From sequence record DRR723986_3165: a stretch of 46,733 nt of DNA, one strand, 5' to 3'. The position numbers were made by a program, and so were the translations under genes. Each line of letters opens with the position of its first letter. The stretch's first letter is position 1. Shown piece by piece: positions 595 through 42,503 of this stretch. A model generated the notes under the pieces. That model made no database searches, was not told the DNA's origin, and worked only from the letters and a program-made list of their open reading frames with translations.

Positions 595-1893
595 ATGAAA
601 TGCTTCGGAAATCGTCTGTCCCGGCGGTCCGCCCTTACCGTTGGCGCCTTCGGAGGCCTCACCCTTGCAGAGCTTTTGCGTGCACGCAGTGTTCTTGGCG
701 ATCAGAAACACTACGACTTTATTCCGGCAAAGGCCGAAAGCGTCATCCACGTCTTCTTGCCCGGCGGGATGGCTCATCAAGAATCCTGGGATCCGAAACC
801 ATATAGTCCGCTCGAGTATCGCGGCGAGATGGGGACGATCAAGACAAACACCGGTGAAGTTGTCAGTAAGACACTACCGAAGCTGTCGCAGTGTGCCGAC
901 AAGTATACCATCATTCGCTCGATGACTCACGGCGAAGCGGCCCACGAACGCGGCACGCACAATATGTTTACGGGCTACAAGCCCAGTCCAGCTCTAGTCT
1001 TCCCGAGCTTTGGCAGCGTGGTCAGCCATGAGTACGGACCGCGGAATAACTTGCCACCTTACATCTGTATTCCGAATCGTCCCAATGAGTTCGCCGGAAG
1101 CGGATACCTGTCGAGTTCTTACGGTCCGTTCGCGCTCGGCGCCGATCCCGCTCGCAGCAACTTTAAAGTTCAGGATCTGAACCTTGCCGGTGGTGTCGAC
1201 GCGGAACGCTTCGCCCGTCGGCAAGAGGCCCTTGAGTCGGTCAACGGATACTTTGCCGCTCGGCACAATGCTGACTCCGTCACCGCCATGGATAGCTTTT
1301 ACGAGCGAGCTTACAGCCTGATCAATTCGCAGAAAGCTCGAGAGGCTTTCGAGATCGAAAAGGAAGATGACAAGCTGCGCGACCGCTATGGACGCAATCA
1401 AGCTGGTCAACGGCTTTTGTTAGCCCGTCGCCTGGTGGAAGCTGGTGCTCGCTTCGTCAGCATGACCTACGGCGGCTGGGACATGCACAACGACATTTCG
1501 ACCAACTTTAACCGTCAGATGCCCTCGCTCGATCAAGGGCTTGCAGCGCTACTGAACGATTTGGATTCACGTGGCATGCTAGACAAAACGCTCGTCATGG
1601 TTTCCAGCGAGTTCGGGCGCACGCCAAAGATCAACTCCACGGCAGGTCGTGACCACTGGCCGAAGGTCTTCAGCGTCATGCTAGCCGGCGGTGGTGTAAA
1701 ACGTGGTTACGTCCACGGGACCAGCGATCCAACTGCCGCAGAACCTGATTTGGATCCAGTTTCACCGGAGAATTTGGCGACGACGATGTACCATCTGCTT
1801 GGGATCGTGGCCGACAAGGAGCTGATGGCTCCAGGCGATCGACCGGTCGAGATCGTCGATGGTGGCAAAGTTGTCAAGGAACTGCTCGCCTAG
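595..1893 (+). CDS. DUF1501 domain protein with Tat-like signal
   Basis: N-terminal SRRSAL twin-Arg; family motifs LPGGMAHQESWDPKP, LLARRLVEAGARFV, GGWDMH, SEFGRTPKIN, GRDHWP. Confidence 0.92.
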   Translation: MKCFGNRLSRRSALTVGAFGGLTLAELLRARSVLGDQKHYDFIPAKAESVIHVFLPGGMAHQESWDPKPYSPLEYRGEMGTIKTNTGEVVSKTLPKLSQCADKYTIIRSMTHGEAAHERGTHNMFTGYKPSPALVFPSFGSVVSHEYGPRNNLPPYICIPNRPNEFAGSGYLSSSYGPFALGADPARSNFKVQDLNLAGGVDAERFARRQEALESVNGYFAARHNADSVTAMDSFYERAYSLINSQKAREAFEIEKEDDKLRDRYGRNQAGQRLLLARRLVEAGARFVSMTYGGWDMHNDISTNFNRQMPSLDQGLAALLNDLDSRGMLDKTLVMVSSEFGRTPKINSTAGRDHWPKVFSVMLAGGGVKRGYVHGTSDPTAAEPDLDPVSPENLATTMYHLLGIVADKELMAPGDRPVEIVDGGKVVKELLA

Positions 1894-2058
1894 GCGCGCG
1901 GTAGCGTCTACGGAAGTTCTTGAAGGGTTTCGCCCGACTCTTCGCTTCCTTGTGCTAGCCCGCTGTTCGCCGCCGCGGGCAGCGCGCTAATCCACTTTTG
2001 GCAGCATTAAATCGGTTTCCAGATTACTGGCATCGCTTGCGGATAGGACACACAGGTA

Positions 2059-4482
2059 ATGAAGACTCGCTCATCCATCATGCGGATCTGTGCTTGGGCT
2101 CTAGCAGCATCGTTCTGCCAAGTTGCCGACGCAGATGATCCGTCCCTGACTCGTTTTAGCCCACCCGGATTCGGTCGCGGCGAAACTGTCGAGATGACGA
2201 TTTCCGGTGCGAGGATCGGCGACGCCACCAAGCTACTCATTTATGAAGCTGGCGTGACGTGCGAATCGCTGGAAGCCAAAGATTCTAAGACGGTAATTGC
2301 CAAGCTGAACATTGCACCGGACTGCCGGCCTGGCTTGCACGCAGTACGCTTGGCGACGAAAACGGGCATCAGCAACCTGCGATATCTTGGCGTGTCACCG
2401 CTGAAGCAAATCGCTGAATCGGAACCCAACAGTGATTTTGAGAAACCGCAACCAGTCGAGCTGGGTTCGACGGTCTCGGGTGTAATCAAGACCGAAGACG
2501 TGGACTACTTTTCGGTCGAGCTTGCGGAAGGTCAGTCGGTTACCATCGAGCTGGAAGGCCTGCGACTTGGCACCGAATTCTTCGACCCTTTCGTTGCCGT
2601 ACTAGATCAAAATCGATTTGAACTCGCCAGCAGCGATGACGCTCCACTGGTCCAGCAGGACTGCATCTGCTCTTACACGGCCGAGAAGGCTGGGAAGTAC
2701 ATTGTTGCCGTCCGCGAGAGCAGCTTTGGTGGCAATGACCGCTGCCAGTACCGAGTACATATCGGCGACTTTCCTCGTCCAGTATCGATCGTTCCGGCAG
2801 GAGGTCAGCCCGGTGAGAAAATCAATGCAACGCTAGTCGACGCCTCAGGTGCAACTTGGCAGCAGGAGATCCAGTTGCCTGAAGTTGCTGGAGAATTTGA
2901 ATTCGTCGCTGAGCGGGACGGCAAGTTGGCGCCTTCTCCGAATACGCTCCGCGTTGCGGCGATGCCAAACGCAATGGAAACAGAGCCCGATGCGGATCGC
3001 GGCAGCCTGGTCGCTCTCGACACGCCCGTTGCCCTAAACGGAGTTCTGCAAGAGGAAGGCGACATTGATTGGTTCAAGATCAAAGGCAAAAAGAACCAAC
3101 AACTCGATATTACTGTCTTTGGTCGCAAAGTTCTGCGCTCGCCCATCGATAGCTGGATAGAAGTACACAAGGCCTCAGGCGGACGCATTAGTCTGAACGA
3201 TGATTCCGGTGGGCCAGACAGTCGTATTGAGCGGCTGAAGCTTCCCGAAGATGGTGAGTATCTGATCGCCATCCGTGATCAACTCCGCGAGGGCTCCGCT
3301 AGCCACGCGTATCGTATTGAAGTCTCTCCGCCGCAGCCGTCCCTTCGACTGACCATCGACGAACTGCAGCGATATTTTTCGCAGACCATATCGGTGCCGC
3401 GAGGCAGTCAGATGGCTGTACTACTTAGAGCCTACCGCAAGAATTTCGGCGGAGAGCTTGCTCTACTTCTCGAAGATCCACCGGAAGGGGTCAGCATCGA
3501 GATTGGGAACGTGGCGTCCAATGCCAGCTACATTCCTCTGATGATCAAAGCGGCAGCGGATGCCCCGATCGATGCCAAGCTAACGCGTTTGGCTGCTCAA
3601 ACAACTGCTCCGGATAAGCCGGTCACGAAGGGAGCCTTGGATCAGCGCACGATGCTGGTCCGCGGCCGCAACAATCGTGACATGTGGGGCCACACCACCG
3701 ACCAACTTGCTCTCGCGGTGACCGAGGAGCTGCCGTTTTCGATCGAGGTCGAGCAACCCAAGGTTCCAATCGTCCGCGGTGGACAAGGACACTTTATCGT
3801 TCGAGCGAAGCGGAAAGAAGGCTTCAAAGAGCGGATCTATCTGAAGACGGTCTACAACCCCAGCGGCACGTCGACCAGTGGTTCGATTCGCATTGAGGGC
3901 GATAAGACAGAGGTGAAGGTTCCGGTAACAGCCAACACAAAGGCTGCCATCGGTAGCTTCCCAGTCGCGATCCTCGCCCGAGCGAAGGCCCGCGATGCAC
4001 TGACCTGGGTCTCCGCTCCAATGATCAATTTGCCGGTCGAAGACTCTTACTTCAACTTCAAGTTCGTCAAGGCTGTCGTTGAATCGGGCAAGTCTGGAAC
4101 GATCACTATAGGGGTCGAAGCCAAGCGTCCTCCGCAGGGCACCGTCGAGATGGAGTTGGTTGGACTGCCCGCTGGTGTTTCTTGCACGGCCGCGACGACA
4201 AAATGGGAAGAAGGTCAAACGCAGGTCACCTTCCCCATTGATGTCGGAGCGAAAGCAAAAGTCGCTCCACACAAAACGTTGTACGTAAAGGCTCGTATCA
4301 TTCGGCCAGAGGGCACCATTCAGCAGACCGCTGGTCGAGGAGAATTGCAAGTCACTGCTCCGGTAGCTCAGATCGCCGCGAACACAAAACCTAAGACGAA
4401 GGCCCCGCAGCAGCCTGCTGCAAAGCCGCTCAGTCGCCTCGAGCAACTTCGGCAAGCAAAATCAGGCGGTGGTCAGCAATAA
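2059..4482 (+). CDS. Secreted PPC (pre-peptidase C-terminal) / Ig-like repeat protein
   Basis: Signal peptide; two ExEP(N/D)...G.I/L....DVD/DIDWF PPC-like repeats; typical position after DUF1501. Confidence 0.8.
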   Translation: MKTRSSIMRICAWALAASFCQVADADDPSLTRFSPPGFGRGETVEMTISGARIGDATKLLIYEAGVTCESLEAKDSKTVIAKLNIAPDCRPGLHAVRLATKTGISNLRYLGVSPLKQIAESEPNSDFEKPQPVELGSTVSGVIKTEDVDYFSVELAEGQSVTIELEGLRLGTEFFDPFVAVLDQNRFELASSDDAPLVQQDCICSYTAEKAGKYIVAVRESSFGGNDRCQYRVHIGDFPRPVSIVPAGGQPGEKINATLVDASGATWQQEIQLPEVAGEFEFVAERDGKLAPSPNTLRVAAMPNAMETEPDADRGSLVALDTPVALNGVLQEEGDIDWFKIKGKKNQQLDITVFGRKVLRSPIDSWIEVHKASGGRISLNDDSGGPDSRIERLKLPEDGEYLIAIRDQLREGSASHAYRIEVSPPQPSLRLTIDELQRYFSQTISVPRGSQMAVLLRAYRKNFGGELALLLEDPPEGVSIEIGNVASNASYIPLMIKAAADAPIDAKLTRLAAQTTAPDKPVTKGALDQRTMLVRGRNNRDMWGHTTDQLALAVTEELPFSIEVEQPKVPIVRGGQGHFIVRAKRKEGFKERIYLKTVYNPSGTSTSGSIRIEGDKTEVKVPVTANTKAAIGSFPVAILARAKARDALTWVSAPMINLPVEDSYFNFKFVKAVVESGKSGTITIGVEAKRPPQGTVEMELVGLPAGVSCTAATTKWEEGQTQVTFPIDVGAKAKVAPHKTLYVKARIIRPEGTIQQTAGRGELQVTAPVAQIAANTKPKTKAPQQPAAKPLSRLEQLRQAKSGGGQQ

Positions 4483-4593
4483 AGCCACCGCTAACCGCCT
4501 TGCGAACCAGCCAATAGCCCATCCCCTCCGAGATCGCATCAATCCCAGCGATTTCCTGATCCCACCGATTGTCAGAATCAAAGAGACGATGCA

Positions 4594-7158
4594 ATGAAGT
4601 CGACAGTCCTCACGCCCACCGGGAACCATGTAGCCCGCCGCCTCGCTCACGCGACCATGAGTTTCGCGATTACCTGCTTGGCGACGTCTACTGTGGTGGC
4701 CGACGGCGAAGCAGACAAGAAAGCGGGCCAGCCGAATGCTGGTGAAGCAGTTGTCGAGAAAGCTGCGGACGCCAAACCACCGCAGCCACCAACGAAGGCT
4801 ACCGTTGAATGGACCGAGGTGCGACTCTACCCGCAGGAAATCAGTCTCTCCGGTTCGACGGATTACCAAGGCGTTGTTGCAATCGCGTTTCGCAGCGATG
4901 GTGTCACCAAGGATATTACAGAAGAGGCCGAGTTCAGTTTCGGCGATGATAAAATTGCGTCTGTCGATGGTGCTGTCATCAAGCCGCTCTCCGGCGGTGA
5001 GACAAAACTTCAGGTTGCATGGAGCGGCCACACTGCTGCTAGCGACGTAAAGGTCGCTTCGCCGGACGTTGCTCGCCCAGTCAGCTTCCATCTGGACGTC
5101 ATGCCAGTTCTGACTAGAACAGGTTGCAACACCGGTTCTTGCCACGGTGCCGCACGCGGAAAGGACGGCTTCCGTTTATCGCTCTTCGGTTTTGATCCAG
5201 TTGGCGATCACGAGCGGATTACGCGAGAGATCGGCATTCGTCGCATCAACCTGGCTCGCCCCGAACAGAGCCTGGTTTATCTGAAGGGTATTGGAGGCGT
5301 ACCGCACTCCGGCGGCACGCGAATGGAACCGGACAGCGAGTACGCAAAAACGCTGCTTGAGTGGCTTGAAGCGGATGCAAAACTGGACGAAGGCACACCT
5401 CCAACATGCACGAAGGTTGAGCTGTTTCCGCCTGAAGCCGTGCTCGAAGGCGACGAGGCAACTCAGCGAATGGTCGCCGTCGCTCACTACAGCGATGGAA
5501 CCACAAGGGACGTCACATCTCTCGCCGCCTTCACCACCAACAACGCTCGAACCGCCGATGTTGATGACCTCGGGCGAGTTTCCGCTGGTGTGCGAGGCGA
5601 AGCGTTCGTGATGGCTCGCTTCGATACTCACACCGTCGGCTCGCAGATTCTGGCTCTGCCCGCGGGGCTTGAATACACCGCTCCACCAATAACAGGTAAC
5701 TACATCGATCAGTTGGTTGGTGAGAAACAGAAGAAACTCCGGATTCTCCCTAGTCAGATTTGCTCCGATGAAGAATTCTTGCGCAGAGCAACGATCGACA
5801 TCGCTGGCCAGCTTCCAACCGAAGAAGAGTACACTGCGTTCATCAATGACAATTCGCCCAGCAAACGCGCTCAGTTAATCGATCGCCTGCTGCAGCGGAA
5901 AGAATTCAGTGAGATCTGGGCCATGAAGTGGGCGCAGCTCCTACTGGTAAAGAGCAACAACCAAGTCAGCTACAAGGCGGCGTTCCTGTACTCAAGTTGG
6001 CTAACCAATGCACTAGCGACCGACACGCCGATTGATGCAATCGTTCGTGACTTGATCGCATCCAGTGGAGGTGTTTTCGAACGGCCCGCGACCAATTTTT
6101 ATCAGGTCGAACGCGACACGCTGAAGACATCTGAAAACGTCGCTCAAGTATTCATGGGCATCCGAACGCAATGTGCGCAGTGCCATAACCACCCATTCGA
6201 CCGGTGGACTATGGATGACTACTACGGTTTTGCGTCCTTCTTTTCGCAGATCGGACGCAAGACTGGCGAGGACTATCGCGAGATTATTGTTTACAACCGC
6301 GGCGGCGGCGAAGTCAACCATCCCGTCACCAAGAAGCCTATTCCGGCCACGTTTTTGGGCGGTGACCAAGCGGACGTGAAGGGGCGAGACCGCCGAGAGG
6401 CGTTGGCACAGTGGCTGACAAGCAAGGAGAATCCATTCTTTGCAAAGAGTATCGCCAATCGTGTTTGGGCACACTTCATGGGCGTTGGCATTGTCGACCC
6501 AGTTGACGATATCCGCGTTTCTAACCCAGCCAGCAACCCGGCCCTTTTCGAGGAGCTTGGAAAGCGTTTTGCGGATTACGATTTCGATTTGAAACAACTC
6601 GTCCGCGATATCTGTAACTCACAGGCCTATCAACGAAGCACGATTACAAATCCAACCAACGGACTGGATACACGGAACTACGCTTTTGCGATGCCACGAC
6701 GTGTTCCGGCGGAAATGTTGCTGGATTGCATTTCCCAGGCGACTTCGACACAGGATAAATTCCGGGGCCTACCGGCAGGTGCGCGGGCGGTTCAGATCGC
6801 CGATGGAGCAACCAGTAATTATTTCCTGACGACCTTTGGCCGCTCGCCACGAACCACGGTCTGCGAGTGTGAAGCGAGCACGGATCCATCGTTGTCACAG
6901 GCGTTGCACTTGATCAATGGTTCAACAACGGCTGGCAAAATCGCGCAAGGCAAGCTGGTGAACACTTGGGTTGAACAAGAGCTGTCAGTGCCGGAAATGA
7001 TCGAAAAGATCTACATTCGTTGCCTCAGCAGAAAACCAACTGAAGAAGAAACCAATCGCTTAACTAAACTAGCTGGTGCGGCCGACAACGTGCGGCTTGG
7101 CGTCGAGGATGTCTTCTGGGCGGTTCTCAACAGTCGCGAATTCATGTTCAACCACTAG
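4594..7158 (+). CDS. DUF1549/DUF1553 (PSCyt2/PSD1) protein with Big_2-like Ig domains
   Basis: GCNTGSCHG, FLRRATIDIAGQLPT, CAQCHNHPFDRW, ANRVWAHFMGVGIVDPVDD, YQRS, CECE, C-terminal WAVLNSREFMFNH. Confidence 0.93.
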   Translation: MKSTVLTPTGNHVARRLAHATMSFAITCLATSTVVADGEADKKAGQPNAGEAVVEKAADAKPPQPPTKATVEWTEVRLYPQEISLSGSTDYQGVVAIAFRSDGVTKDITEEAEFSFGDDKIASVDGAVIKPLSGGETKLQVAWSGHTAASDVKVASPDVARPVSFHLDVMPVLTRTGCNTGSCHGAARGKDGFRLSLFGFDPVGDHERITREIGIRRINLARPEQSLVYLKGIGGVPHSGGTRMEPDSEYAKTLLEWLEADAKLDEGTPPTCTKVELFPPEAVLEGDEATQRMVAVAHYSDGTTRDVTSLAAFTTNNARTADVDDLGRVSAGVRGEAFVMARFDTHTVGSQILALPAGLEYTAPPITGNYIDQLVGEKQKKLRILPSQICSDEEFLRRATIDIAGQLPTEEEYTAFINDNSPSKRAQLIDRLLQRKEFSEIWAMKWAQLLLVKSNNQVSYKAAFLYSSWLTNALATDTPIDAIVRDLIASSGGVFERPATNFYQVERDTLKTSENVAQVFMGIRTQCAQCHNHPFDRWTMDDYYGFASFFSQIGRKTGEDYREIIVYNRGGGEVNHPVTKKPIPATFLGGDQADVKGRDRREALAQWLTSKENPFFAKSIANRVWAHFMGVGIVDPVDDIRVSNPASNPALFEELGKRFADYDFDLKQLVRDICNSQAYQRSTITNPTNGLDTRNYAFAMPRRVPAEMLLDCISQATSTQDKFRGLPAGARAVQIADGATSNYFLTTFGRSPRTTVCECEASTDPSLSQALHLINGSTTAGKIAQGKLVNTWVEQELSVPEMIEKIYIRCLSRKPTEEETNRLTKLAGAADNVRLGVEDVFWAVLNSREFMFNH

Positions 7159-29623: not shown

Positions 29624-30043
29624 TCAGTCTTTCCGCAACAAACCGCCCAGCTTCCGGCGATCCTGAGCTTCCCGTCGGCCATGAATGATGTCTGCTAAGA
29701 ATAGACGTTCTGGTCGAGGCTGGCGTAAAAAGGAATCCGCAGATTTTCTGAAATGCGGGCTTCAAGTTGCCTATTTGGGTCCTCAAGGACGCGTAGCGGA
29801 CAACGACCGGCAGATTGATCATTGGTTTGCACGGCAAGTGGACGCTCTTGGGGCCCGGTTTCGCTGGATGTTCCAGCGCGGTAGATTCATCGGCATCGGA
29901 AAGTGCGGCTGGCAGAAGCCAAAAGAGTCAGCATTGGCTGCAAAAGGCACGCTGAACAGACTACAGCGCACTGCGAACGATCAATCCGTCCGGCTAGATC
30001 CGTGGCCAGGCGACACGAAACACGCATGACGCAGGAAATGACT

Positions 30044-31465
30044 ATGTCCGAGTTGCTTCGATTCGATCCATCAGGTGCTTTTATTCCCGAAACGGGCCTC
30101 GAAACCAGCGATGTAGCAAGCCTGGGTTCAACGCTAGAAAAACTGCGTGACGAAGTCTGCGATATCGATGTCAAAATGCTGGCTGGAGAAATCGCAACTC
30201 CCGAGGAGAAACAGCCTCTGGACGCAGGCTTTTACATGATGCCAGAACGGCTGCTTGCCGAATACGAGGCAGATCGAAGCGGTAGTGAGTTGGCGCGCAT
30301 TCTAGCGTTCACCAAACAGATGATGACAAAGGTGGATCGGGTGGTAGTTCTCGGCATCGGCGGCTCCTACATGGGAGCCCGAGCGCTGATGGACGCCTGC
30401 TGCCAGCCCTACTTTAACGAACTCTCACGCGGAGATCGCGGCAGCCGCCCACGAATTTACTTCGAAGGCAACAACGTCGACAACGATGCAACTCAAGGTC
30501 TAATGCACTTACTCGGGGCAAACCGCGACCATGTTGCTACGGGCGTCGACGATAGTTGGGGCCTTGTCGTGATCAGCAAGAGCGGCGGAACCTTGGAAAC
30601 CGCAAGTGCGTTCCGGCAATTCTTGGCAGCCCTCGAGACGAGCTGTGGCGGTGATGCTGAGAAGATTCGAGAACGATTGATTCCAGTCACCGGTGCCTCG
30701 GGCAAGCTGTACGACTTTGCCACAGAATTAGGGTGCAAAGACATCTTCCCCGTACCCGATGGCGTTGGCGGAAGGTTCTCGATCCTAAGCGCTGTTGGAT
30801 TGGTGCCAGCGGCGTTGATGGGCATCAATGTCATGAAGCTGCTCCAAGGAGCTGCCGCGATGAACGAGCACTTCCGTACAGCCAAGGCGGCTGACAATGT
30901 TGTGCTGCAGTACACCGCTGTGAACCATTTGATGGAAATCAAACGCGGTGCCAACATCCGGCTGCTCAGCATGTGGAGCAAGGCTTTGGAAAGTGCTGGC
31001 ATGTGGTACGACCAGTTGCTGGCCGAGAGCCTTGGGAAAGCCGAGAAGGGCGCGATGCCTCTAACAACGGTTAACACTCGCGATCTGCATTCCCGGCACC
31101 AGCAGCATCAAGAGGGACGCCGCGACAAGATTGTCAACAATGTCATCGTTGAAAAGTATCGATTCGACGCCCTACCGATCGGCGCACGTGATTCTGATCC
31201 CGACACCTTGAATGATATCGCGGACAAAACGCTTCCGGACATCATGAAGGCTGCGATTGACGGTACAAACCAAGCACTTCGCGATGATGGGCGACCATCT
31301 ACGAACATTCATTTGCCGGTTGTCGACGAGTACACGATGGGCCAGTACTTCCAGATGCTAATGCTCGCGACCGTAGTCGAGGGGCGACTATTGGGGCTGA
31401 ATCCCTATGGACAACCGGGTGTTGAAGCGTACAAGAAGAACATGAACAGAAACTTGGGACGTTAA
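30044..31465 (+). CDS. pgi: Glucose-6-phosphate isomerase
   Basis: GIGGSYMG, ISKSGGTLET, VGGRFSILSAVGL, QLLAESLGK, DLHS, NPYGQPGVEAYK; AGGA upstream of the ATGs at 30038/30044. Confidence 0.93.
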   Translation: MSELLRFDPSGAFIPETGLETSDVASLGSTLEKLRDEVCDIDVKMLAGEIATPEEKQPLDAGFYMMPERLLAEYEADRSGSELARILAFTKQMMTKVDRVVVLGIGGSYMGARALMDACCQPYFNELSRGDRGSRPRIYFEGNNVDNDATQGLMHLLGANRDHVATGVDDSWGLVVISKSGGTLETASAFRQFLAALETSCGGDAEKIRERLIPVTGASGKLYDFATELGCKDIFPVPDGVGGRFSILSAVGLVPAALMGINVMKLLQGAAAMNEHFRTAKAADNVVLQYTAVNHLMEIKRGANIRLLSMWSKALESAGMWYDQLLAESLGKAEKGAMPLTTVNTRDLHSRHQQHQEGRRDKIVNNVIVEKYRFDALPIGARDSDPDTLNDIADKTLPDIMKAAIDGTNQALRDDGRPSTNIHLPVVDEYTMGQYFQMLMLATVVEGRLLGLNPYGQPGVEAYKKNMNRNLGR

Positions 31466-32290: not shown

Positions 32291-33982
32291 CTAGGAGAAG
32301 AACCGACGCATCGCCGTGAACCGGAGAGCCATTCTGGCAAACCGAAGCCAGGGAGCTGGCCGCCCGGCTCGCTCCCAAAGTCTGGGCAATTCATCTTCGG
32401 TAAGCTCACCACTGCGGTCTTCATCGAAGCGTTCCAAGCGATTCCACCGAGACTCGCCCAACTCCGCCTCGCTCAATCCGCCGCTCATGTCGGCATCGAA
32501 GCGATCAAACCGTGACTGCGTTCGGAAGTCCTCGAATTCTTCGAAGGATATCCCGCCGCTCGCGTCAGTGTCGGCGGTCTGCAAGCGATTCCAACGAGCG
32601 GTGCCAAGCTCATCTTCTGTTAGTTCGCCGCTATCATCGATGTCCTGGGCTCGAAAAACGTCCAACCTTAAGGCTGCAATTCTTTCGTGGATCTCATCCA
32701 GCGATATGGCATCATCACCATTGGCGTCGAGCCCATAAACCAGCAGCCGCTGCCAGAGCACATCCGGAACCCCCTCCTGGGTCAGCAAGCCATCATCGCT
32801 CGTGTCGACAACTGGAAATAACTCGGTTGCAATTCGCTGCAATCGACCGACCAAGGTTCCGCGTTCATGGTCCAATTCCATTTGATTGTCATCTTCTGCG
32901 GGATTCTCACTAGTCTCGTCCTCGCCAGTGTTCTCTTCGTTGGCTGCGGTTCCGTCACCTTCCCTGGTGACACCATCAACAGAGTCGTCAGCACCGTCTC
33001 GCTGGCCGTCCGATGCCGTGTCAGCGGCCGAGTTCAATTCGTTTACAACCATCAAGGCATCCATCGGAGTGATGCTGCCATCGTTGTCGGTGTCACATTG
33101 GTGGTCGCTACTGTGATCCCCGGAGTTAATGGTGTTGATGATCAACAGGACATCGATCGGGCTGACTGATTCGTCACCATTGACGTCCCTTGGGTGCACA
33201 TGGTTGTGCATTGAGTTGCTGGGCTGAAAGACGACAATTACGCCTCCACCAAACGATGCGCTGCCGTCAAAACGACGAGTGGACCAGCGACGAAATCGCT
33301 CTGCAAATTGGCGTATTCTGTCTTCGATGCTCGACGTGGAAACTTGGTCGACGGGATCCGTTTCGGGCGTGTCATCCGTTGGTAGGACATCATTCTCAAG
33401 CGGCAAAGCTGGGGCGTAGAGCGACTGTATTGCAGCGACGTCGGAATCACTCAGCCCAACGAAGAACTCGTTTGGCGATATCGTCGGTGCGAGAATGCTG
33501 TCTTCATGGTCATGGTCGTGCCCGAGACCAAGCGAATGGCCAATTTCATGAACGGCTACGGAGACCAGATCAAAAGCACGGCTTCCGAGGGCATTGCCAA
33601 CTTCCCACCGCTCCGCAATGTCAAACTGGATATCACCAGCAACGATGGGAGAATTCAGATCGTCGGGAAAATAGGCTTGGGCCAGAGTGCCGCCGCTGCC
33701 ATCGAGTGGAATGAAACTGATATCAATGCTGTTGCGAAGTCCAGGTGTATCGACTCGCTCAAAAGTGATGTCGGCTGCTTCCTCCCAGGCACCGAATGCT
33801 GTCTCCACAGCCGCATCTACCTGTGCTTGCGAGAGAGTTGGAGGTGCATTGGCAATGTGGTAGGTCAGCTCGGCTGAACCAAGTCCGGGGCCGTCCCAGC
33901 CAAGACTCGCAGCGAGAACTCGGCGATCTTCGAGTGTCTCAAATCCGCTAACGCGACAGCCCTTGCATTGCCTAAATTTCAT
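32291..33982 (-). CDS. Matrixin (M10-like) metalloprotease with dockerin and EF-hand repeats
   Basis: ETLEDRRVLA planctomycete leader motif; DGSGGTLAQAYFP, HEIGHSLGLGH; DVNGDESVSPID/DTDNDGSITPMD dockerin pair; about six DxDxSGxLxxxE loops. Confidence 0.88.
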   Translation of the reverse strand: MKFRQCKGCRVSGFETLEDRRVLAASLGWDGPGLGSAELTYHIANAPPTLSQAQVDAAVETAFGAWEEAADITFERVDTPGLRNSIDISFIPLDGSGGTLAQAYFPDDLNSPIVAGDIQFDIAERWEVGNALGSRAFDLVSVAVHEIGHSLGLGHDHDHEDSILAPTISPNEFFVGLSDSDVAAIQSLYAPALPLENDVLPTDDTPETDPVDQVSTSSIEDRIRQFAERFRRWSTRRFDGSASFGGGVIVVFQPSNSMHNHVHPRDVNGDESVSPIDVLLIINTINSGDHSSDHQCDTDNDGSITPMDALMVVNELNSAADTASDGQRDGADDSVDGVTREGDGTAANEENTGEDETSENPAEDDNQMELDHERGTLVGRLQRIATELFPVVDTSDDGLLTQEGVPDVLWQRLLVYGLDANGDDAISLDEIHERIAALRLDVFRAQDIDDSGELTEDELGTARWNRLQTADTDASGGISFEEFEDFRTQSRFDRFDADMSGGLSEAELGESRWNRLERFDEDRSGELTEDELPRLWERAGRPAPWLRFARMALRFTAMRRFFS

Positions 33983-34394
33983 TCCGAGCATCCCTTTGGA
34001 ATTATTGAGTTGGCGGCTGAATTGTACCAAAGCGTCGCAGCTCGCCATAGACTTTTGCTCCGAACTTGCTCAGTGCTATCAAGAGGTGCAGGGAGCCGAT
34101 CGCATATCAAGTGAGCTAGCCATCTCACCGAGAACCGGTGCCACTTGGGGTGCGACGCTTAAGAACAACAGGGCGAAGGACGCCACGAAACGTCACGCTT
34201 AAACGTAATAATTCTTCGCGCAGCGGCAGTTTTCGAGCAGCAAACGAAAACGTCCTTAAGCCGCGATCGCTATTTATGCGGGCGCTTCGATCTGCTACAC
34301 GTCGCAGTAAGGAACTGACATTTCAGAAAGCTAGCAATGCTACTGGCGGCCCGACATGGCTCATAGCTCGTGCTAGATTTAGAGGGAATTATAG

Positions 34395-37615: not shown

Positions 37616-37796
37616 CGATTGCGTTTTATTGAGTCCACAAGATAATTGACGCCCCGAACCGCCGATGGCACTGGCAATATGCTGGTTTCTAAATCTCCAG
37701 CGGCGAAGCTGTGCTGGTGCCCAGTTTTGAAGCAGCCAGCTCTTGGCAATAACTCACTCGCCCACAAATCTCTCGAGCACGAACAAGGAGACCTCT

Positions 37797-38210
37797 ATGG
37801 TCAAGATCGACATCACTTATGAAGGCAATCTGCGATGCAAAGCCACTCATGAGCCTAGCGGCTGCGAACTTTCCACCGACGCGCCTAAGGATAACGAGGG
37901 CCTTGGCCAGTCGTTCTCGCCCACGGACCTGGTCGCCACCGCACTTGGTAGCTGTGTTGCAACCATTATGGGGATTTATGCGCGAAAGCATGACATTGAT
38001 CTGTCTGGGATGACGATCAACGTTGAAAAGCATATGTCCACCGACGCACCTCGGCGAATCGTCGCGCTTCCAGTTAAGATCGTCGTCCCCGTCACACTGA
38101 GCGAGCGTCATCGAGAATCCATGGAGCGAGCTGCCGGTCACTGCCCAGTGCACCAGAGCTTGCGAGCTGACATCGACGCACCACTTCATTTTTCCTACCC
38201 GGACAGCTAG
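37797..38210 (+). CDS. OsmC family protein
   Basis: TDAPKDNEGLGQSFSPTDLVATALGSC ... HCPVHQSL; AAGGAG RBS. Confidence 0.93.
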   Translation: MVKIDITYEGNLRCKATHEPSGCELSTDAPKDNEGLGQSFSPTDLVATALGSCVATIMGIYARKHDIDLSGMTINVEKHMSTDAPRRIVALPVKIVVPVTLSERHRESMERAAGHCPVHQSLRADIDAPLHFSYPDS

Positions 38211-38250: not shown

Positions 38251-39096
38251 ATGCAAGTTACGAAAGCTGTCATCACGGCGGCAGGCAATTCTAGGACTCA
38301 GTTACCCTTGCAGAGTGTTGTCGATCGTTCTGGACAAGTTCGAACGGCATTGGAGTTGTTAGTCGACGAGCTCACCGCGGCCGAGATTTCTCATCTGGCA
38401 ATTGTCGTTCGCCCTGGCCAGTCCGAGGCTTACGAGGCCGCTGCCGGCGATTCTGTACGCATTCAGTGTATCGAACAAGATTCACCGATAGGCTACGGCG
38501 ACGCAATTCTTCGCGCCGAAGAATTTGTGGGCGAGGACGCGTTTCTACACTTGGTCAGCGATCACCTGTACGTATCGCGGAACACAAAAACGTGCGCGCA
38601 GCAATTGATCGAAGTGGCCCAGGAAGAAGGCTGTTCCGTGTCGGCCGTTCAGCCAACGCGAGAGAACGAGCTTGCCTATTTTGGTGCAATCGGTGGTTCT
38701 CCGGTTCCTCGCTCAAGCAGCCTGTTCGAGGTTAAACAAGTGGTCGAAAAGCCCACGCCCACTCAGGCTGAGCAGTCGCTGATTGTGGCTGGCCAACGCG
38801 CCGGTTACTACCTGTGCTTGTTTGGCATGCATGTACTTACACCGAAGATCTTCGAGCTGCTGCGAGCAGACTTGGCGGCCGCGGACGGGACAATTGACCT
38901 TTCGACATCACTCAACCGTCTGGCTCAGAACGAGCGGTACTTGGCGGCAAAACTGGACGGCGTCCGCTACGACATCGGCGAGAAATACGGCCTACTCATC
39001 GCTCAGCTAGCCATCGCTCTTAGCGGTGACGATCGAGAGCGAATCCTAAGTGAGTTGGTCGAGCTGGTTGCCCGACAGCAATCACCGCAGATCTAA
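38251..39096 (+). CDS. GalU-like sugar-phosphate nucleotidyltransferase with a degenerate signature
   Basis: KAVITAAG, EQDSPIGYGDAIL, FLHLVSDHLY, VVEKP, RYDIG. Confidence 0.82.
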   Translation: MQVTKAVITAAGNSRTQLPLQSVVDRSGQVRTALELLVDELTAAEISHLAIVVRPGQSEAYEAAAGDSVRIQCIEQDSPIGYGDAILRAEEFVGEDAFLHLVSDHLYVSRNTKTCAQQLIEVAQEEGCSVSAVQPTRENELAYFGAIGGSPVPRSSSLFEVKQVVEKPTPTQAEQSLIVAGQRAGYYLCLFGMHVLTPKIFELLRADLAAADGTIDLSTSLNRLAQNERYLAAKLDGVRYDIGEKYGLLIAQLAIALSGDDRERILSELVELVARQQSPQI

Positions 39097-39158
39097 CCGA
39101 TGCATGCTTCTGTGCAATTGACTACAACACCTCGCCTGGTGAGCCGGTAGAGAATTCA

Positions 39159-42100
39159 ATGAACAATCGAACGCTGAACGACACGTCATTACTGGATGTC
39201 ATTGCCTCCAGCGACGAAGCGATCCGCAACCTATCGCTGGAACAGCTTTGTGAATCAGCCAGCCGGTCCGAATTGATGTCGGTCTGCGAAGACTTAGATG
39301 ATTTTAGACACAAGACGCAAAATCTCTACCATCGCGTTCGTGCGTTGTTTTTCCTGTATGCCATCCACCGCTTTCACTTGCCAGGCCGTTTGGAAGATCG
39401 CCAATCTGGCGTCATTCCGATTGAAGGCTATCGCCACCTTTTCCAACGGCGTTTCCCCGAGGCGCTTCGGTGTTTCCTGCAAGAGCAACGATCGGCGGGC
39501 CCGAGCGTCGCTCTGTCAAGCGCGCTGGCCAGCGGGTACCATCAGCTCGCCATTCAGACTCTCGCTGATCAGGTTCGCAAGAGTGTTCGAAGCGTGCGTG
39601 GAAATCAGTGGATGTTTCGCATCGGTCACCCGGCCGATACGCCGATTCGCATCCGCCCAGAGCTCAGAGAGAAAGACTCCCGCAATAGCTTTCCCGTACT
39701 CAGCGAACGGACGAGCGTGCGGATGGACTTTACACACAGTGCGTGGAGTGACATTTTCTTTCTTGGGATGGACTTCCCGGAAGGCGCACGCGTCATCAAC
39801 GCATCAATTGACTTGGGCGTGCAAGGAAAACACAACGCTCCCGAGCCACCGATCCACTGTACGTTTCGTGTTATCGAGAAGCCCGTTATCAAGCTAACGA
39901 GCATCGATCTGAATGCGACAGCAGAGATCGTTACGATTAGCGAGCTGTTTGATTTTGCTCATGACTATCTCGGACTCATCAAAGCGGCGGTGATTGCTGC
40001 CGGGATCGTGCCACCAGGCATGGAGGGATGTGATGCACCGGTTGCGAGAGTGCTCAAGCGCCTGGCCGGACCTGGACTAGGAATTGAGATCGTCAGTCGA
40101 GTCAACGGAATTCCCAAGGGCTCTCGGTTGGCCGTGTCCACAAACCTGCTTGGTTCGTTGATCTCACTGTGCATGCGGGCCACTGGTCAAGTCACTCAGT
40201 TGACCGGTCCGCTCGCGGAATCCGACCGAAGAATTGTCGCTGCCCGCGCGATCCTTGGTGAATGGCTGGGAGGCAGCGGCGGTGGTTGGCAGGATTCTGG
40301 TGGAATCTGGCCGGGGATCAAGCTGATTGAAGGTGCCTTGGCTACGGAGGGGGACGCCGAATTTGGTATCAGCCGAGGCAGGCTGCTGCCACAACACACT
40401 GTCCTGGACCAAGAGTCGTTGCCCACCGCATCGAAAAAGAAACTCCAGGAATCACTAGTGCTCGTTCACGGTGGTATGGCCCAGAACGTGGGGCCAATCT
40501 TGGAAATGGTCACAGAGAAATACCTGCTGCGCAGCCTGGACGAGTGGAAGGCCCGCCAGGAAGCGGTGCGCCGCGTTCAGCAAATCCTCGACGCACTGAA
40601 AGCCGGCGATATTCGGGCAGTTGGACAGTTTACCGATTCAAACTTTCGCGACCTGCTGCAACGGATCATTCCGTGGTGTACTAATCATTACACCGAACGG
40701 CTAATCGCGGCTTGCAAGGAAAAATACGGTGACGACTTTTGGGGCTTCTGGATGCTGGGCGGAATGGCCGGCGGTGGAATGGGATTCCTCTTCGATCCGA
40801 AAATCCGCCCCGAGGCAGCGCAATGGCTGGGCCGGAAGATGATCGAGGAAAAACGCGCGCTCGAATCGAGCCTGCCGTTTGCGATGGATCCAGTTGTCTA
40901 CGACTTTCGGATCAATGATGAGGGCACGACGGCGATTCTGTCTGACGCCGACGAAATGCCCACTGGCTATTTCCCGTTTACGATTCCTAGCCTACTGCGC
41001 AAGTCTAGCGATGAAATCACAGCCAGCGAGCGAGCCGATCTGGAGTACGTAGGCAGAACGCTCCAGCCAGTGGCAGCATCATCGACAGCAAAGCCCGATT
41101 CGGAACACTTGGTGTCCGAACTCATGGGGCGTTTGCTACCAACCAAGACTTTTGCCTCCAGTGATAATGACGACAGTTTGGCAAAACTGTTGGAAGCGAA
41201 CGGATTTGATCGCGATGAGCACGATGCGATCCGAGAGGACCTTCTTGCGGGCAGACTAGGACTCCGGCAAAACAGACTGCCAGCAAGTAGCCGGATCGAA
41301 GACGTTCAACCCGAAGACATCATCGATACTCGCAGTGGCTTTTCCCCATCCTTGGCGTCAGTCGGAGAAAAGGCGATTTCGTCAGGCGAAGTGGCCGTGG
41401 TGACGCTTGCCGCCGGTGTCGGCAGCCGATGGACACAGGGTGCAGGTGTAGTAAAGGCACTGAACCCCTTCCACAAGATCGACGGCGCGCATCGTAGCTT
41501 CTTGGATCTGCATACGGCGAAAGCAAAACTTGTCGGCGAGAAGTTCGGATTCTATCCCGCCCACATCGTTACCACAGGCTACATGACCGACGCGCCAATT
41601 CACGCAGCGGTCCAGGCGACTGACTACCCCGGTGCAAAATTTGTTTCCAGGGGCAAGAGTGTCGGTCTGCGTATGGTCCCGACGGTCTCGGATCTACAGT
41701 TTGCATGGGAGGAAATGCCCGAGCAAGTACTCGATCAGCAGCAAGAGAAAGTGCGGCAAAGCGCCCGTGCTGCTTTGCTCGACTGGGCCCGTGGTGCCGG
41801 CCAAGCAAGCGACTATACCGACAACTTGCCAATGCAATGCCTACACCCAGTAGGACACTGGTACGAAGTCCCCAACTTGCTCCGAAACGGCACGCTTCGC
41901 AACCTGTTGCAGCAACACCCGCAGACTCGCCACCTTTTGTTGCACAACGTTGACACTCTCGGCGCGACGCTCGATCCAGCAATCCTAGGACTTCACATGA
42001 CCAGCGGCTCCTGCTTGTCATTCGAAGTCATTTCTAGGCGATTGGAGGATCGCGGCGGAGGCCTGGCCAGAGTCGACGGTCGACCGCGACTTGTCGAAGG

Positions 42101-42503
42101 CCTCGCGATGCCCAGCGAAGAAGCTGAATTCAAACTGACTTATTACAATTCCATGACAACTTGGATCGATATAGATCGACTTCTCGATGTGTTTGGAATC
42201 ACCAGGGAAGATCTGAGCAGTGCACCGAAAGTTCAGCGGGCCGTTCGCAATATCGCTCGACGCATGCCAACCTACATCACTCTGAAGGATGTGAAGCGAA
42301 GATGGGGGAACGGGCAGGAAGATGTTTTTCCGGTTTGCCAGTTTGAAAAAATCTGGGGCGACATGACCGGGCTTCCCGAAGTTGATTGCCAGTACTTGGT
42401 CGTGCCAACGGTGCGTGGGCAACAAATGAAGGATCCAGCCCAACTCGACGGTTGGCTGCGTGATGGTTCTGCAGCCGAAGTAATTAAGCTTTGTAGTTTC
42501 TGA
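39159..42503 (+). CDS. Fusion of a GHMP (fucokinase-like) sugar kinase and a UDPGP-family pyrophosphorylase
   Basis: VRMDFTHSAWSD, IPKGSRLAVS, GSGGGWQD, MLGGMAGGG (GHMP); LAAGVGSRW..K, HPVGH, HNVDTL, DRGGGL, FEK (UDPGP-like). Confidence 0.85.
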   Translation: MNNRTLNDTSLLDVIASSDEAIRNLSLEQLCESASRSELMSVCEDLDDFRHKTQNLYHRVRALFFLYAIHRFHLPGRLEDRQSGVIPIEGYRHLFQRRFPEALRCFLQEQRSAGPSVALSSALASGYHQLAIQTLADQVRKSVRSVRGNQWMFRIGHPADTPIRIRPELREKDSRNSFPVLSERTSVRMDFTHSAWSDIFFLGMDFPEGARVINASIDLGVQGKHNAPEPPIHCTFRVIEKPVIKLTSIDLNATAEIVTISELFDFAHDYLGLIKAAVIAAGIVPPGMEGCDAPVARVLKRLAGPGLGIEIVSRVNGIPKGSRLAVSTNLLGSLISLCMRATGQVTQLTGPLAESDRRIVAARAILGEWLGGSGGGWQDSGGIWPGIKLIEGALATEGDAEFGISRGRLLPQHTVLDQESLPTASKKKLQESLVLVHGGMAQNVGPILEMVTEKYLLRSLDEWKARQEAVRRVQQILDALKAGDIRAVGQFTDSNFRDLLQRIIPWCTNHYTERLIAACKEKYGDDFWGFWMLGGMAGGGMGFLFDPKIRPEAAQWLGRKMIEEKRALESSLPFAMDPVVYDFRINDEGTTAILSDADEMPTGYFPFTIPSLLRKSSDEITASERADLEYVGRTLQPVAASSTAKPDSEHLVSELMGRLLPTKTFASSDNDDSLAKLLEANGFDRDEHDAIREDLLAGRLGLRQNRLPASSRIEDVQPEDIIDTRSGFSPSLASVGEKAISSGEVAVVTLAAGVGSRWTQGAGVVKALNPFHKIDGAHRSFLDLHTAKAKLVGEKFGFYPAHIVTTGYMTDAPIHAAVQATDYPGAKFVSRGKSVGLRMVPTVSDLQFAWEEMPEQVLDQQQEKVRQSARAALLDWARGAGQASDYTDNLPMQCLHPVGHWYEVPNLLRNGTLRNLLQQHPQTRHLLLHNVDTLGATLDPAILGLHMTSGSCLSFEVISRRLEDRGGGLARVDGRPRLVEGLAMPSEEAEFKLTYYNSMTTWIDIDRLLDVFGITREDLSSAPKVQRAVRNIARRMPTYITLKDVKRRWGNGQEDVFPVCQFEKIWGDMTGLPEVDCQYLVVPTVRGQQMKDPAQLDGWLRDGSAAEVIKLCSF

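Follow-up and report, generated by a model that had tools for sequence, protein, structure and literature searches.

A candidate sugar-activation module in planctomycete DNA: a fucokinase-like GHMP kinase fused to a UDPGP-type nucleotidyltransferase beside a degenerate GalU-like protein

Introduction

Bifunctional sugar-1-kinase/pyrophosphorylases such as Fkp make one-pot synthesis of nucleotide sugars possible and define how cells recycle sugars. Here we describe a two-gene module at positions 38251-42503 of a 46,733-nucleotide stretch of DNA from sequence record DRR723986_3165 (the window, used here for the whole stretch) that appears to assemble such chemistry in a different way. The larger gene (39159-42503, + strand, ATG start, stop codon included) encodes an 1114-amino acid (aa) protein (P0002) in which a fucokinase-like GHMP kinase domain precedes a UDPGP-type nucleotidyltransferase core. 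The smaller gene (38251-39096, + strand, ATG start) lies directly upstream and encodes a 281-aa protein (P0001) with the fold of GalU and a degenerate loop. We assign a probability of about 60% to the reading that the fusion is an anomeric sugar kinase/nucleoside diphosphate (NDP)-sugar pyrophosphorylase with a non-catalytic or poorly catalytic GalU-like partner, the two forming one module that activates a free monosaccharide. Both open reading frames (ORFs) and the 62-nt spacer between them (39097-39158, + strand) lie where a preliminary description of this DNA had placed them. No terminator-like site was found when the spacer was scanned, and the two genes are probably co-transcribed. The larger ORF is not a chance reading frame, since a word-indexed search of a protein collection returned at least 8000 near-full-length relatives of near-equal length, and at least 633 confirmed stretches in species-representative genomes also encode relatives. 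Analyses of loci were performed on the best 80 of these stretches, which are 55-66% identical to the 1114-aa protein.

Architecture and catalytic residues of the fusion protein

An AlphaFold2 (AF2) model of the 1114-aa protein built on 29 homologues has a predicted local distance difference test (pLDDT) score of 89.2 and a predicted template modelling (pTM) score of 0.86, and pLDDT falls below 50 only at residues 638-644 and 662-670. In this model the protein consists of an N-terminal helical domain (residues 1-175, positions 39159-39683), a fucokinase-like GHMP kinase domain (residues 176-600, 39684-40958), a flexible inter-domain linker that holds the only low-confidence stretches (residues 601-663, 40959-41147), and a UDPGP-type sugar-1-phosphate nucleotidyltransferase core (residues 664-1114 and the stop codon, 41148-42503), all on the + strand. 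The two folds had been proposed from motifs, and both are now predicted at high confidence with strong matches to solved structures in VIA and Foldseek comparisons. At the sequence level, a family profile finds UDP-glucose pyrophosphorylases (UGPases; E 1e-23) and Fkp (E 1e-18) in the PDB. The motifs named for the kinase half are located at residues 187-190 (VRMD), 196-198 (WSD), 319-322 (PKGS), 374-379 (GGGWQD), and 534-540 (GGMAGGG), and the GHMP assignment of that half stands with one qualification: its first ~175 residues form a separate domain. Residues 11-154 are helical in the model, and residues 1-595 align to residues 476-949 of full-length Fkp (Z 33.1 over 464 residues with VIA), so the first ~175 residues are the structural counterpart of Fkp's helical linker subdomain; when a kinase-only Fkp entry is used, the alignment covers residues 150-595. 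The linker subdomain of Fkp is reported to pack on the kinase (PMC11982464).

The kinase domain has a two-domain GHMP fold, and its similarity to Fkp holds in sequence as well as in structure. VIA superimposed it on the fucokinase part of Fkp (9iip) with a Z score of 35.9 over 355 of 361 residues and a root-mean-square deviation of 2.9; galactokinases and mevalonate kinases scored about 28-29 over model residues ~177-597. Foldseek was consistent with these alignments (TMt 0.83 and 0.81). The NCBIfam model for Fkp, NF009948, matches residues 182-563 with its kinase part only (model positions 611-949, E 5.6e-19), and the 1114-aa protein fails the whole-protein cut-off of that model (67.3 bits versus 721). 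A phmmer search of the PDB with the kinase domain yielded Fkp entries only, in three of three matches at E<=10, which bears out the earlier label of fucokinase-like.

The residues required for catalysis in Fkp are conserved. In that enzyme D762 is described as the general base, R592 and Mg2+ are stabilizing, S719 and S720 lie at the metal, and the E751A and D762A variants are inactive, with fucose contacted by W599, D601, T602, and Q761 (PMC11982464). A phmmer alignment, rather than a ligand-bound model, was used to transfer these positions to the 1114-aa protein. D762 maps to D379, R592 to R188, E751 to E368, and the S719/S720 pair to S327/T328; among the fucose contacts, W599 maps to W196, D601 to D198, and Q761 to Q378, and T602 is replaced by Ile (I199). 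Residues R188, D198, I199, S327, E368, Q378, and D379 are invariant in a 29-sequence alignment. W196 is missing from the four most divergent sequences (P0147, P0152, P0155, and P0161) and present in the other 25. Counting the base along with the contacts (W599, D601, T602, Q761, and D762), four of five fucose-site residues are identical to those of Fkp and conserved in the core family. The same Arg/Asp pair is reported for the heptokinase WcbL as R13/D163 (PMC4691232). The phosphate loop of the 1114-aa protein reads KGSRLAVST where residues 712-720 of Fkp read AGSGLGTSS; Gly715 has become Arg and Gly717 has become Ala, with the Ser (S327) and Thr (T328) kept. Within this loop P319, S322, and L324-S327 are invariant, and conservation at I318, G321, and T328 is 90% or higher. 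Position 323 is Arg in the core family and Gly in Fkp and the divergent P0147, P0155, and P0161.

This loop is one reason to consider a kinase that acts on a sugar already phosphorylated. By this account the substrate would be a hexose 6-phosphate or heptose 7-phosphate, as for HddA and WcbL, the product would be a sugar 1,x-bisphosphate that a phosphatase encoded elsewhere trims, and the UDPGP domain would then form a UDP-sugar by a heptose-pathway-like, mutase-independent route. The kinase domain superimposes on WcbL with a Z score of 34.6, near the Fkp score, and on 3k85, deposited as a D-glycero-D-manno-heptose 1-phosphate kinase, with 30.2, and R323 of the core family could bind an additional phosphate. 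Additionally, two distant relatives (33-37% identity), P0141 (2318 aa) and P0159 (2939 aa), have the kinase-UDPGP unit fused to a ROK glucokinase-like domain, and P0141 is further fused to an inositol-monophosphatase-family domain, although both are predicted proteins with unchecked gene models. Set against these points, the sequence search of the PDB finds Fkp and no heptokinases, the W-x-D and Q-D residues that contact fucose in Fkp are conserved, and neither a phosphatase nor an isomerase is linked to the module in the 80 loci. We regard a phosphorylated substrate as unlikely.

The second half of the protein matches Pfam UDPGP (PF01704) at residues 895-1012 with 31.1 bits, above the gathering cut-off of 22, and its closest counterpart by family profile is UGPase (8c0b, E 1e-23). 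VIA aligned model residues 664-1114 to fungal, insect, and human UAP1 with Z scores of 30-31 and to UGPases with about 30; for the UAP1 of Aspergillus fumigatus (AfUAP1), residues 667-1114 correspond to chain residues 54-484 (Z 30.7), and for the UGP of A. fumigatus, residues 679-1114 correspond to chain residues 56-420 (Z 30.1). The fold of the catalytic core is therefore complete in the model. The aligned UGPase ranges end at about residue 380-420, and the C-terminal beta-helix of UGPases lies outside them. The motifs reported for this half are also in place, at residues 750-757 (LAAGVGSR), 896-900 (HPVGH), 929-932 (HNVD), and 1062-1064 (FEK). The segments AAGVGSR, HPVGHW, HNVDTLGA, RRLEDRGGG, and LKDVK align to a fungal UGPase and are conserved, and K1043, the Lys of L-K-D-V-K, is invariant in the 29-sequence alignment. 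These correspond to what we take to be the functional motifs of the UDPGP family, namely G-x-G-T/S-x, P-x-G-H-G, N-x-D-N-L-G, K/R-x-x-D-x-K/G-G-G, and the Lys of N-x-K. Judging from this conservation, the kinase and UDPGP halves are probably both catalytically competent.

A linked partner with a degenerate nucleotide loop

The 281-aa protein is a member of the GalU fold group that has diverged from canonical GalU. Its AF2 model (pLDDT 89) resembles YngB and the GalU of several species in Foldseek comparisons (TM 0.73-0.79), it matches Pfam NTP_transferase with an E value of 7e-11, and its profile retrieves YngB (E 6e-33) and GalU/RmlA structures from the PDB, with no Fkp entry among the 45 matches at E<=10. 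The match to the galU model TIGR01099 covers model positions 92-259 only and reaches 102.1 bits, below the cut-off of 326.8. The protein carries AAGNSRTQLPLQS where GalU has AAGLGTRFLPATK in the nucleotide/pyrophosphate loop. When aligned, AAG-N-S-R-T-Q-LPLQS of the GalU-like protein faces AAG-L-G-T-R-F-LPATK of GalU, so that GNSRT stands in for GLGTR.

A tally over 67 orthologues, made up of P0001 and the proteins of 66 loci (four loci with partial matches were dropped), shows how far this loss extends. The position of T20 in GalU is never Thr (Gln in 54, His in 10, Asp in 2, and Arg in 1), and the Lys of LPATK is replaced in all 67. The position of R21 is Arg in 27 of the 67, with a sharp division between the Planctomycetota (0/25) and all others (27/42). 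In Escherichia coli GalU, Vmax is reported to drop some three orders of magnitude with the T20M/R21H substitution; E201, K202, Y218, and D265 are described as part of the site for glucose 1-phosphate (Glc-1-P), with K202 binding that ligand (PMC4643126). D104, H105, E166, K167, and H194 are invariant in all 67 orthologues, E166 and K167 being the counterparts of E201 and K202. D241, which aligns with the Asp of Y-D-x-G in GalU and presumably equates to D265 of the E. coli enzyme, is Asp in 29, Asn in 36, and Ala in 2. These patterns indicate a nucleotide/pyrophosphate loop that is not under the usual constraint and a sugar-phosphate half that is, and they agree with the preliminary designation of the gene as a degenerate GalU. 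Since the GLGTR signature is lost and the fold and sugar-phosphate half are kept, the protein is probably a non-catalytic or weakly catalytic partner.

Alternatively, the GalU-like protein might itself be an active nucleotidyltransferase whose loop has been remodelled (LPLQ), making a second NDP-sugar from the kinase product, for example with another nucleotide, so that the module would have two active pyrophosphorylases. In favor of this, the predicted Mg-binding Asp (D104) never varies, nor does the E-K pair (E166 and K167) or LPLQ, whose constancy points to selection on the loop, and the Arg persists in 27 of the 42 non-planctomycete orthologues. GalF, which is similarly substituted, is reported to retain low activity (PMC4643126). 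However, the Thr is never kept, the LPATK Lys is never Lys, the Arg is gone from 25 of 25 planctomycete orthologues including that of the window, 38 of 67 have Asn or Ala in place of D241, and the score on the galU model is a third of the cut-off. Taken together these losses make a second active transferase improbable, and we favor the probably non-catalytic or weakly catalytic partner. A complex prediction that paired this partner with fusion residues 1-620, run without alignments or controls, scored 0.00 and counts neither for nor against an interaction.

The linkage of the two genes is strongly conserved. A GalU-like gene lies directly upstream, in the same order and with a short gap, in 70 of the 80 loci and in 70 of the 71 with enough flanking sequence to tell. 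Nine of the ten loci without an adjacent GalU-like gene have less than 520 nt of upstream flank, and in the genome of the tenth (L003) the partner, 60% identical, is on another contig. Clustering of all ORFs in the 80 loci found only these two genes and no third conserved neighbor. The pairing thus extends across many genomes, and it is not confined to the Planctomycetes-Verrucomicrobia-Chlamydiae (PVC) group for which a synteny survey had first been suggested: the 80 loci span Planctomycetota, Verrucomicrobiota, Chloroflexota, Armatimonadota, Acidobacteriota, and Rhodothermota, and one comes from a bin labelled Nitrosopumilus (the label is unchecked). Cultured carriers of the module include Fuerstiella marisgermanici, Horticoccus sp., and Pelagicoccus sp. 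A FastTree tree of 67 rows, which excludes 13 loci whose matches were partial or interrupted, groups the phyla with seven label changes against a minimum of five, which points to mostly vertical descent within lineages. Within phyla the module is patchy, with 12 carriers among 201 sampled genomes from the phylum of the carrier genome G001 and 9 among 151 from the phylum of a second carrier, G003 (about 6%). In the 201-genome sample, all eight genomes with the partner (E<=1e-40) also carry the large gene.

Natural fusions of the two genes were sought as well. Six matches to longer proteins were found, four of them with both parts; all were irregular (528-1047 aa) and may be artefacts of assembly or gene calling. 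Long open frames in G167 and G202 do not share the reading frame of the GalU-like gene. Neither set was used as evidence.

Other sugar-nucleotide genes in carrier genomes

Five carrier genomes, G001-G005, which hold the loci L020, L006, L040, L065, and L015, were examined for related enzymes. None contains a canonical GalU above the NCBIfam cut-off, and in four of the five the top galU match is the module's own GalU-like protein. Four of the five have a separate UDPGP protein of 464-496 aa (for example, G002:C7:954286-955290 and G001:C2:890057-891052) that scores 112-172 bits on PF01704 compared to 34-40 bits for the fused domain. The stand-alone family had no match in 14 control genomes, and it may supply the real UGPase of these carrier lineages. 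A PF01704 search of G005 found no other UDPGP-family gene.

These results bear on the simplest account of the 1114-aa protein, that it is just the UDP-glucose pyrophosphorylase of the cell with a kinase-like half that is regulatory or vestigial. Public records name the family "UTP--glucose-1-phosphate uridylyltransferase" or "hypothetical protein", with one source using a fucokinase/pyrophosphorylase-type name. The first of these labels, the position of UGPases as the solved structures closest to the C-terminal domain, the lack of canonical GalU above cut-off in the five carriers, and the situation in G005 are all in line with a housekeeping role. Such a role is nevertheless unlikely because four of five carriers have the separate, far higher-scoring UDPGP protein. 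A module carried by only 12 genomes in a sample of 201 and 9 in one of 151 is also not a general UGPase, and kinase catalytic residues that stay invariant over about 55-66% identity across phyla are unexpected for a vestige. We therefore consider this account very unlikely.

No GFPP domain (PF07959) was found over cut-off in the five carriers, which leaves the transferases of the module itself as the sole evident candidates to carry out the second step. All five carriers have a GDP-mannose dehydratase, which does not discriminate between the readings discussed here. A route to UDP-glucuronic acid (UDP-GlcA) through myo-inositol oxygenase (MIOX), an idea that came from the inositol-monophosphatase-family fusion, was also considered. 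MIOX is found in 2 of 5 carriers and in 11 of the 201 genomes sampled for the phylum, and the route was rejected for lack of association, with only G001 common to the 11 MIOX genomes and the 12 module carriers. The MIOX (PF05153) matches, among them L081 (G001:C15:55494-56219) and L082 (G002:C6:1350324-1351052), score 355-378 bits, and the family had no match in the 14 control genomes.

Proposed mechanism and substrate

We infer the activities, the nucleotide, the sugar, and the physical or regulatory role of the partner as follows. The GHMP domain would use ATP to phosphorylate a sugar at its anomeric hydroxyl by the mechanism of Fkp and WcbL, with Asp379 as the general base and Arg188, Ser327, and Mg2+ stabilizing the transferred phosphate. 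The helical N-terminal domain would buttress the kinase as an Fkp-type linker. The UDPGP domain would then convert the sugar 1-phosphate into the NDP-sugar, the NTP used being most likely UTP. The GalU-like partner could act as a sensor or regulator of sugar 1-phosphate or NDP-sugar in a manner comparable to GalF. By analogy, mutations in the pyrophosphorylase domain of FKP are reported to alter the substrate preference of its kinase (PMC12732313), and the GalU-like protein might influence its kinase similarly. As for the substrate, the sequence comparisons point first to a fucose-like sugar (of the L-fucose, D-arabinose, or L-galactose type) because the Fkp fucose contacts are conserved and only Fkp is found by sequence. 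Room is left for other substrates, including phosphorylated sugars, given the UDPGP chemistry described below, the near-equal heptokinase score, and the phosphate-loop Arg.

A number of observations weigh against this proposal. UDPGP-fold enzymes are known to act on alpha-D-sugar 1-phosphates and beta-L-arabinose 1-phosphate and are not known to act on fucose 1-phosphate; the two halves therefore do not obviously share a substrate, since the product of a fucokinase-type kinase, beta-L-fucose 1-phosphate, falls outside the known UDPGP substrates. With GDP-mannose dehydratase in five of five carriers, fucose salvage is not needed for GDP-fucose. The heptokinase WcbL scores nearly as high as Fkp in structural comparison with the kinase domain, whose phosphate loop does not follow the GHMP consensus. 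When standard family models were applied, UDPGP and NTP_transferase matched, but Pfam GHMP_kinases_N was not detected in the 1114-aa protein and GHMP_kinases_C was sub-threshold (14.9 bits versus a cut-off of 21); the divergent relative P0155 does match GHMP_kinases_N. The Arg retained in 27 of 42 non-planctomycete orthologues means that the partner may keep some activity there. A genome-wide profile search and an upstream check did not find the partner in 4 of the 12 carriers, draft genomes in which absence is not proven, and the partner is evidently not obligatory in more divergent members. Finally, the neighborhood is without a transporter, glycosidase, or glycosyltransferase.

A bolder form of the proposal can also be put forward. 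Here the module would be an Fkp relative that has been re-wired and that defines a previously undescribed nucleotide-sugar route: a fucokinase-type kinase would feed a UDPGP-fold transferase, yielding either a UDP-activated L-fucose-type sugar new to glycobiology or the first GDP-fucose made by a UDPGP-fold enzyme. A GalU-derived pseudo-enzyme would stand in for the lost N-terminal pyrophosphorylase, sensing sugar phosphate and acting allosterically on the kinase as one of its subunits. We offer this version as speculation with an outside chance of being correct.

Genomic surroundings

The window is planctomycete DNA, as judged from DUF1501, PSCyt1/PSCyt2/PSD1, and other hallmark families, and the closest relatives of the 1114-aa protein are from Pirellulaceae. 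This agrees with the planctomycete setting first suggested for the module. As for polysaccharide degradation, lineage-specific neighbors in the 80 loci are housekeeping genes (phosphoglycerate kinase, pyruvate kinase, FolE2, PTPS, and SDR) and no polysaccharide-utilization locus is seen. In Verrucomicrobiota loci the module adjoins phosphoglycerate kinase and pyruvate kinase. The window itself has a phosphoglucose-isomerase-like ORF of 520 aa at 29903-31465 (+ strand), for which the Pfam PGI match is partial (residues 140-380, E 1.4e-22), and the recurrence of glycolytic neighbors may be coincidence.

Immediately upstream of the module, ORFs at 37689-38189 (- strand) and 37743-38210 (+ strand) overlap on opposite strands. 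The 166-aa minus-strand ORF is probably spurious because a family match (OsmC, E 2.6e-14) is found only on the overlapping + ORF. A gap of 40 nt separates the end of the OsmC gene from the GalU-like gene. Farther away, 32291-34048 (- strand) encodes a 585-aa protein in which a type I dockerin and several EF-hand matches accompany a matrixin (M10) metalloprotease domain, an uncommon mix for a planctomycete. A run of genes at 595-7158 (+ strand) encodes a DUF1501 protein, then a pre-peptidase-C-domain protein, and then a PSCyt2/PSD1 (DUF1549/DUF1553) protein; this set is typical of planctomycetes, and its function is not known.

Comparison with known systems

A full-text literature search found no characterized orthologue of, or paper on, this kinase-UDPGP architecture, in agreement with the preliminary description. 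The main text of a phylogenetic study of FKP, FUK, and GFPP contains no mention of UDP, uridylyltransferase, Planctomyc-, or Verrucomicrob- (PMC12732313). The family is nevertheless widespread, occurring in several hundred species of six phyla under the label of UTP--glucose-1-phosphate uridylyltransferase. With its sugar and nucleotide identified, this annotation would be corrected, and a new biocatalyst, perhaps even a new nucleotide sugar, could be gained. The module would also provide a bacterial test case for a catalytically dead nucleotidyltransferase kept as the partner of a kinase.

In terms of separate enzymes, the salvage pathways of plants and trypanosomatids offer the same two chemistries on the same folds, a GHMP kinase and a UDPGP-type transferase. 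Plants are described as using separate GHMP sugar-1-kinases together with a UDP-sugar pyrophosphorylase (USP) or a UGPase. The two enzymes are fused here, and the UGPase beta-helix falls outside the aligned ranges. A GHMP sugar-1-kinase fused to a nucleotidyltransferase-like domain is described for zebrafish DrGKUP, a glucuronokinase/putative UDP-GlcA pyrophosphorylase whose short bacterial-type transferase-like part could not be shown to be active (PMC3938481). DrGKUP differs, as far as it is described there, in its transferase-then-kinase order, in a bacterial-type transferase of ~260 aa that is not UDPGP, in its glucuronokinase specificity, and in having no third component.

For the GalU-like partner, the nearest functional parallel is GalF of E. 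coli, which is reported to have the GalU fold with the T-R of GLGTR replaced and the Glc-1-P-binding E-K pair kept (PMC4643126). GalF is far closer to GalU, however, and the GalU-like protein scores only 30.9 bits on the galF model (cut-off 659). Relative to GalU, the partner is shorter between the second and third strands, has an 11-residue insertion after the EKP motif, and lacks the LPATK Lys.

The closest system overall is Fkp of Bacteroides fragilis, the L-fucokinase/GDP-L-fucose pyrophosphorylase (PDB 9IIT, 9IIP, and 5YYS). Both proteins join an anomeric sugar kinase to a sugar-1-phosphate nucleotidyltransferase, their kinase domains and helical linker subdomains are structurally equivalent (Z 33-36), and the catalytic Arg, Glu, Asp, and Ser are kept along with three of the four fucose contacts (W599, D601, and Q761), with T602 as Ile here. 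The phosphate loop (KGSRLAVST) and the NCBIfam Fkp score (67 bits versus 721) set the two apart. The pyrophosphorylase of Fkp is N-terminal and belongs to the beta-helical GFPP family (PF07959), for which a Pfam search at E<=1 gave no match in either the GalU-like or the 1114-aa protein; here the transferase is C-terminal and of the unrelated UDPGP family, and the position before the linker is taken by the product of a separate GalU-like gene. The family thus pairs the two chemistries of Fkp with a eukaryote-type transferase fold, the opposite domain order, and a conserved partner that is probably a pseudo-enzyme.

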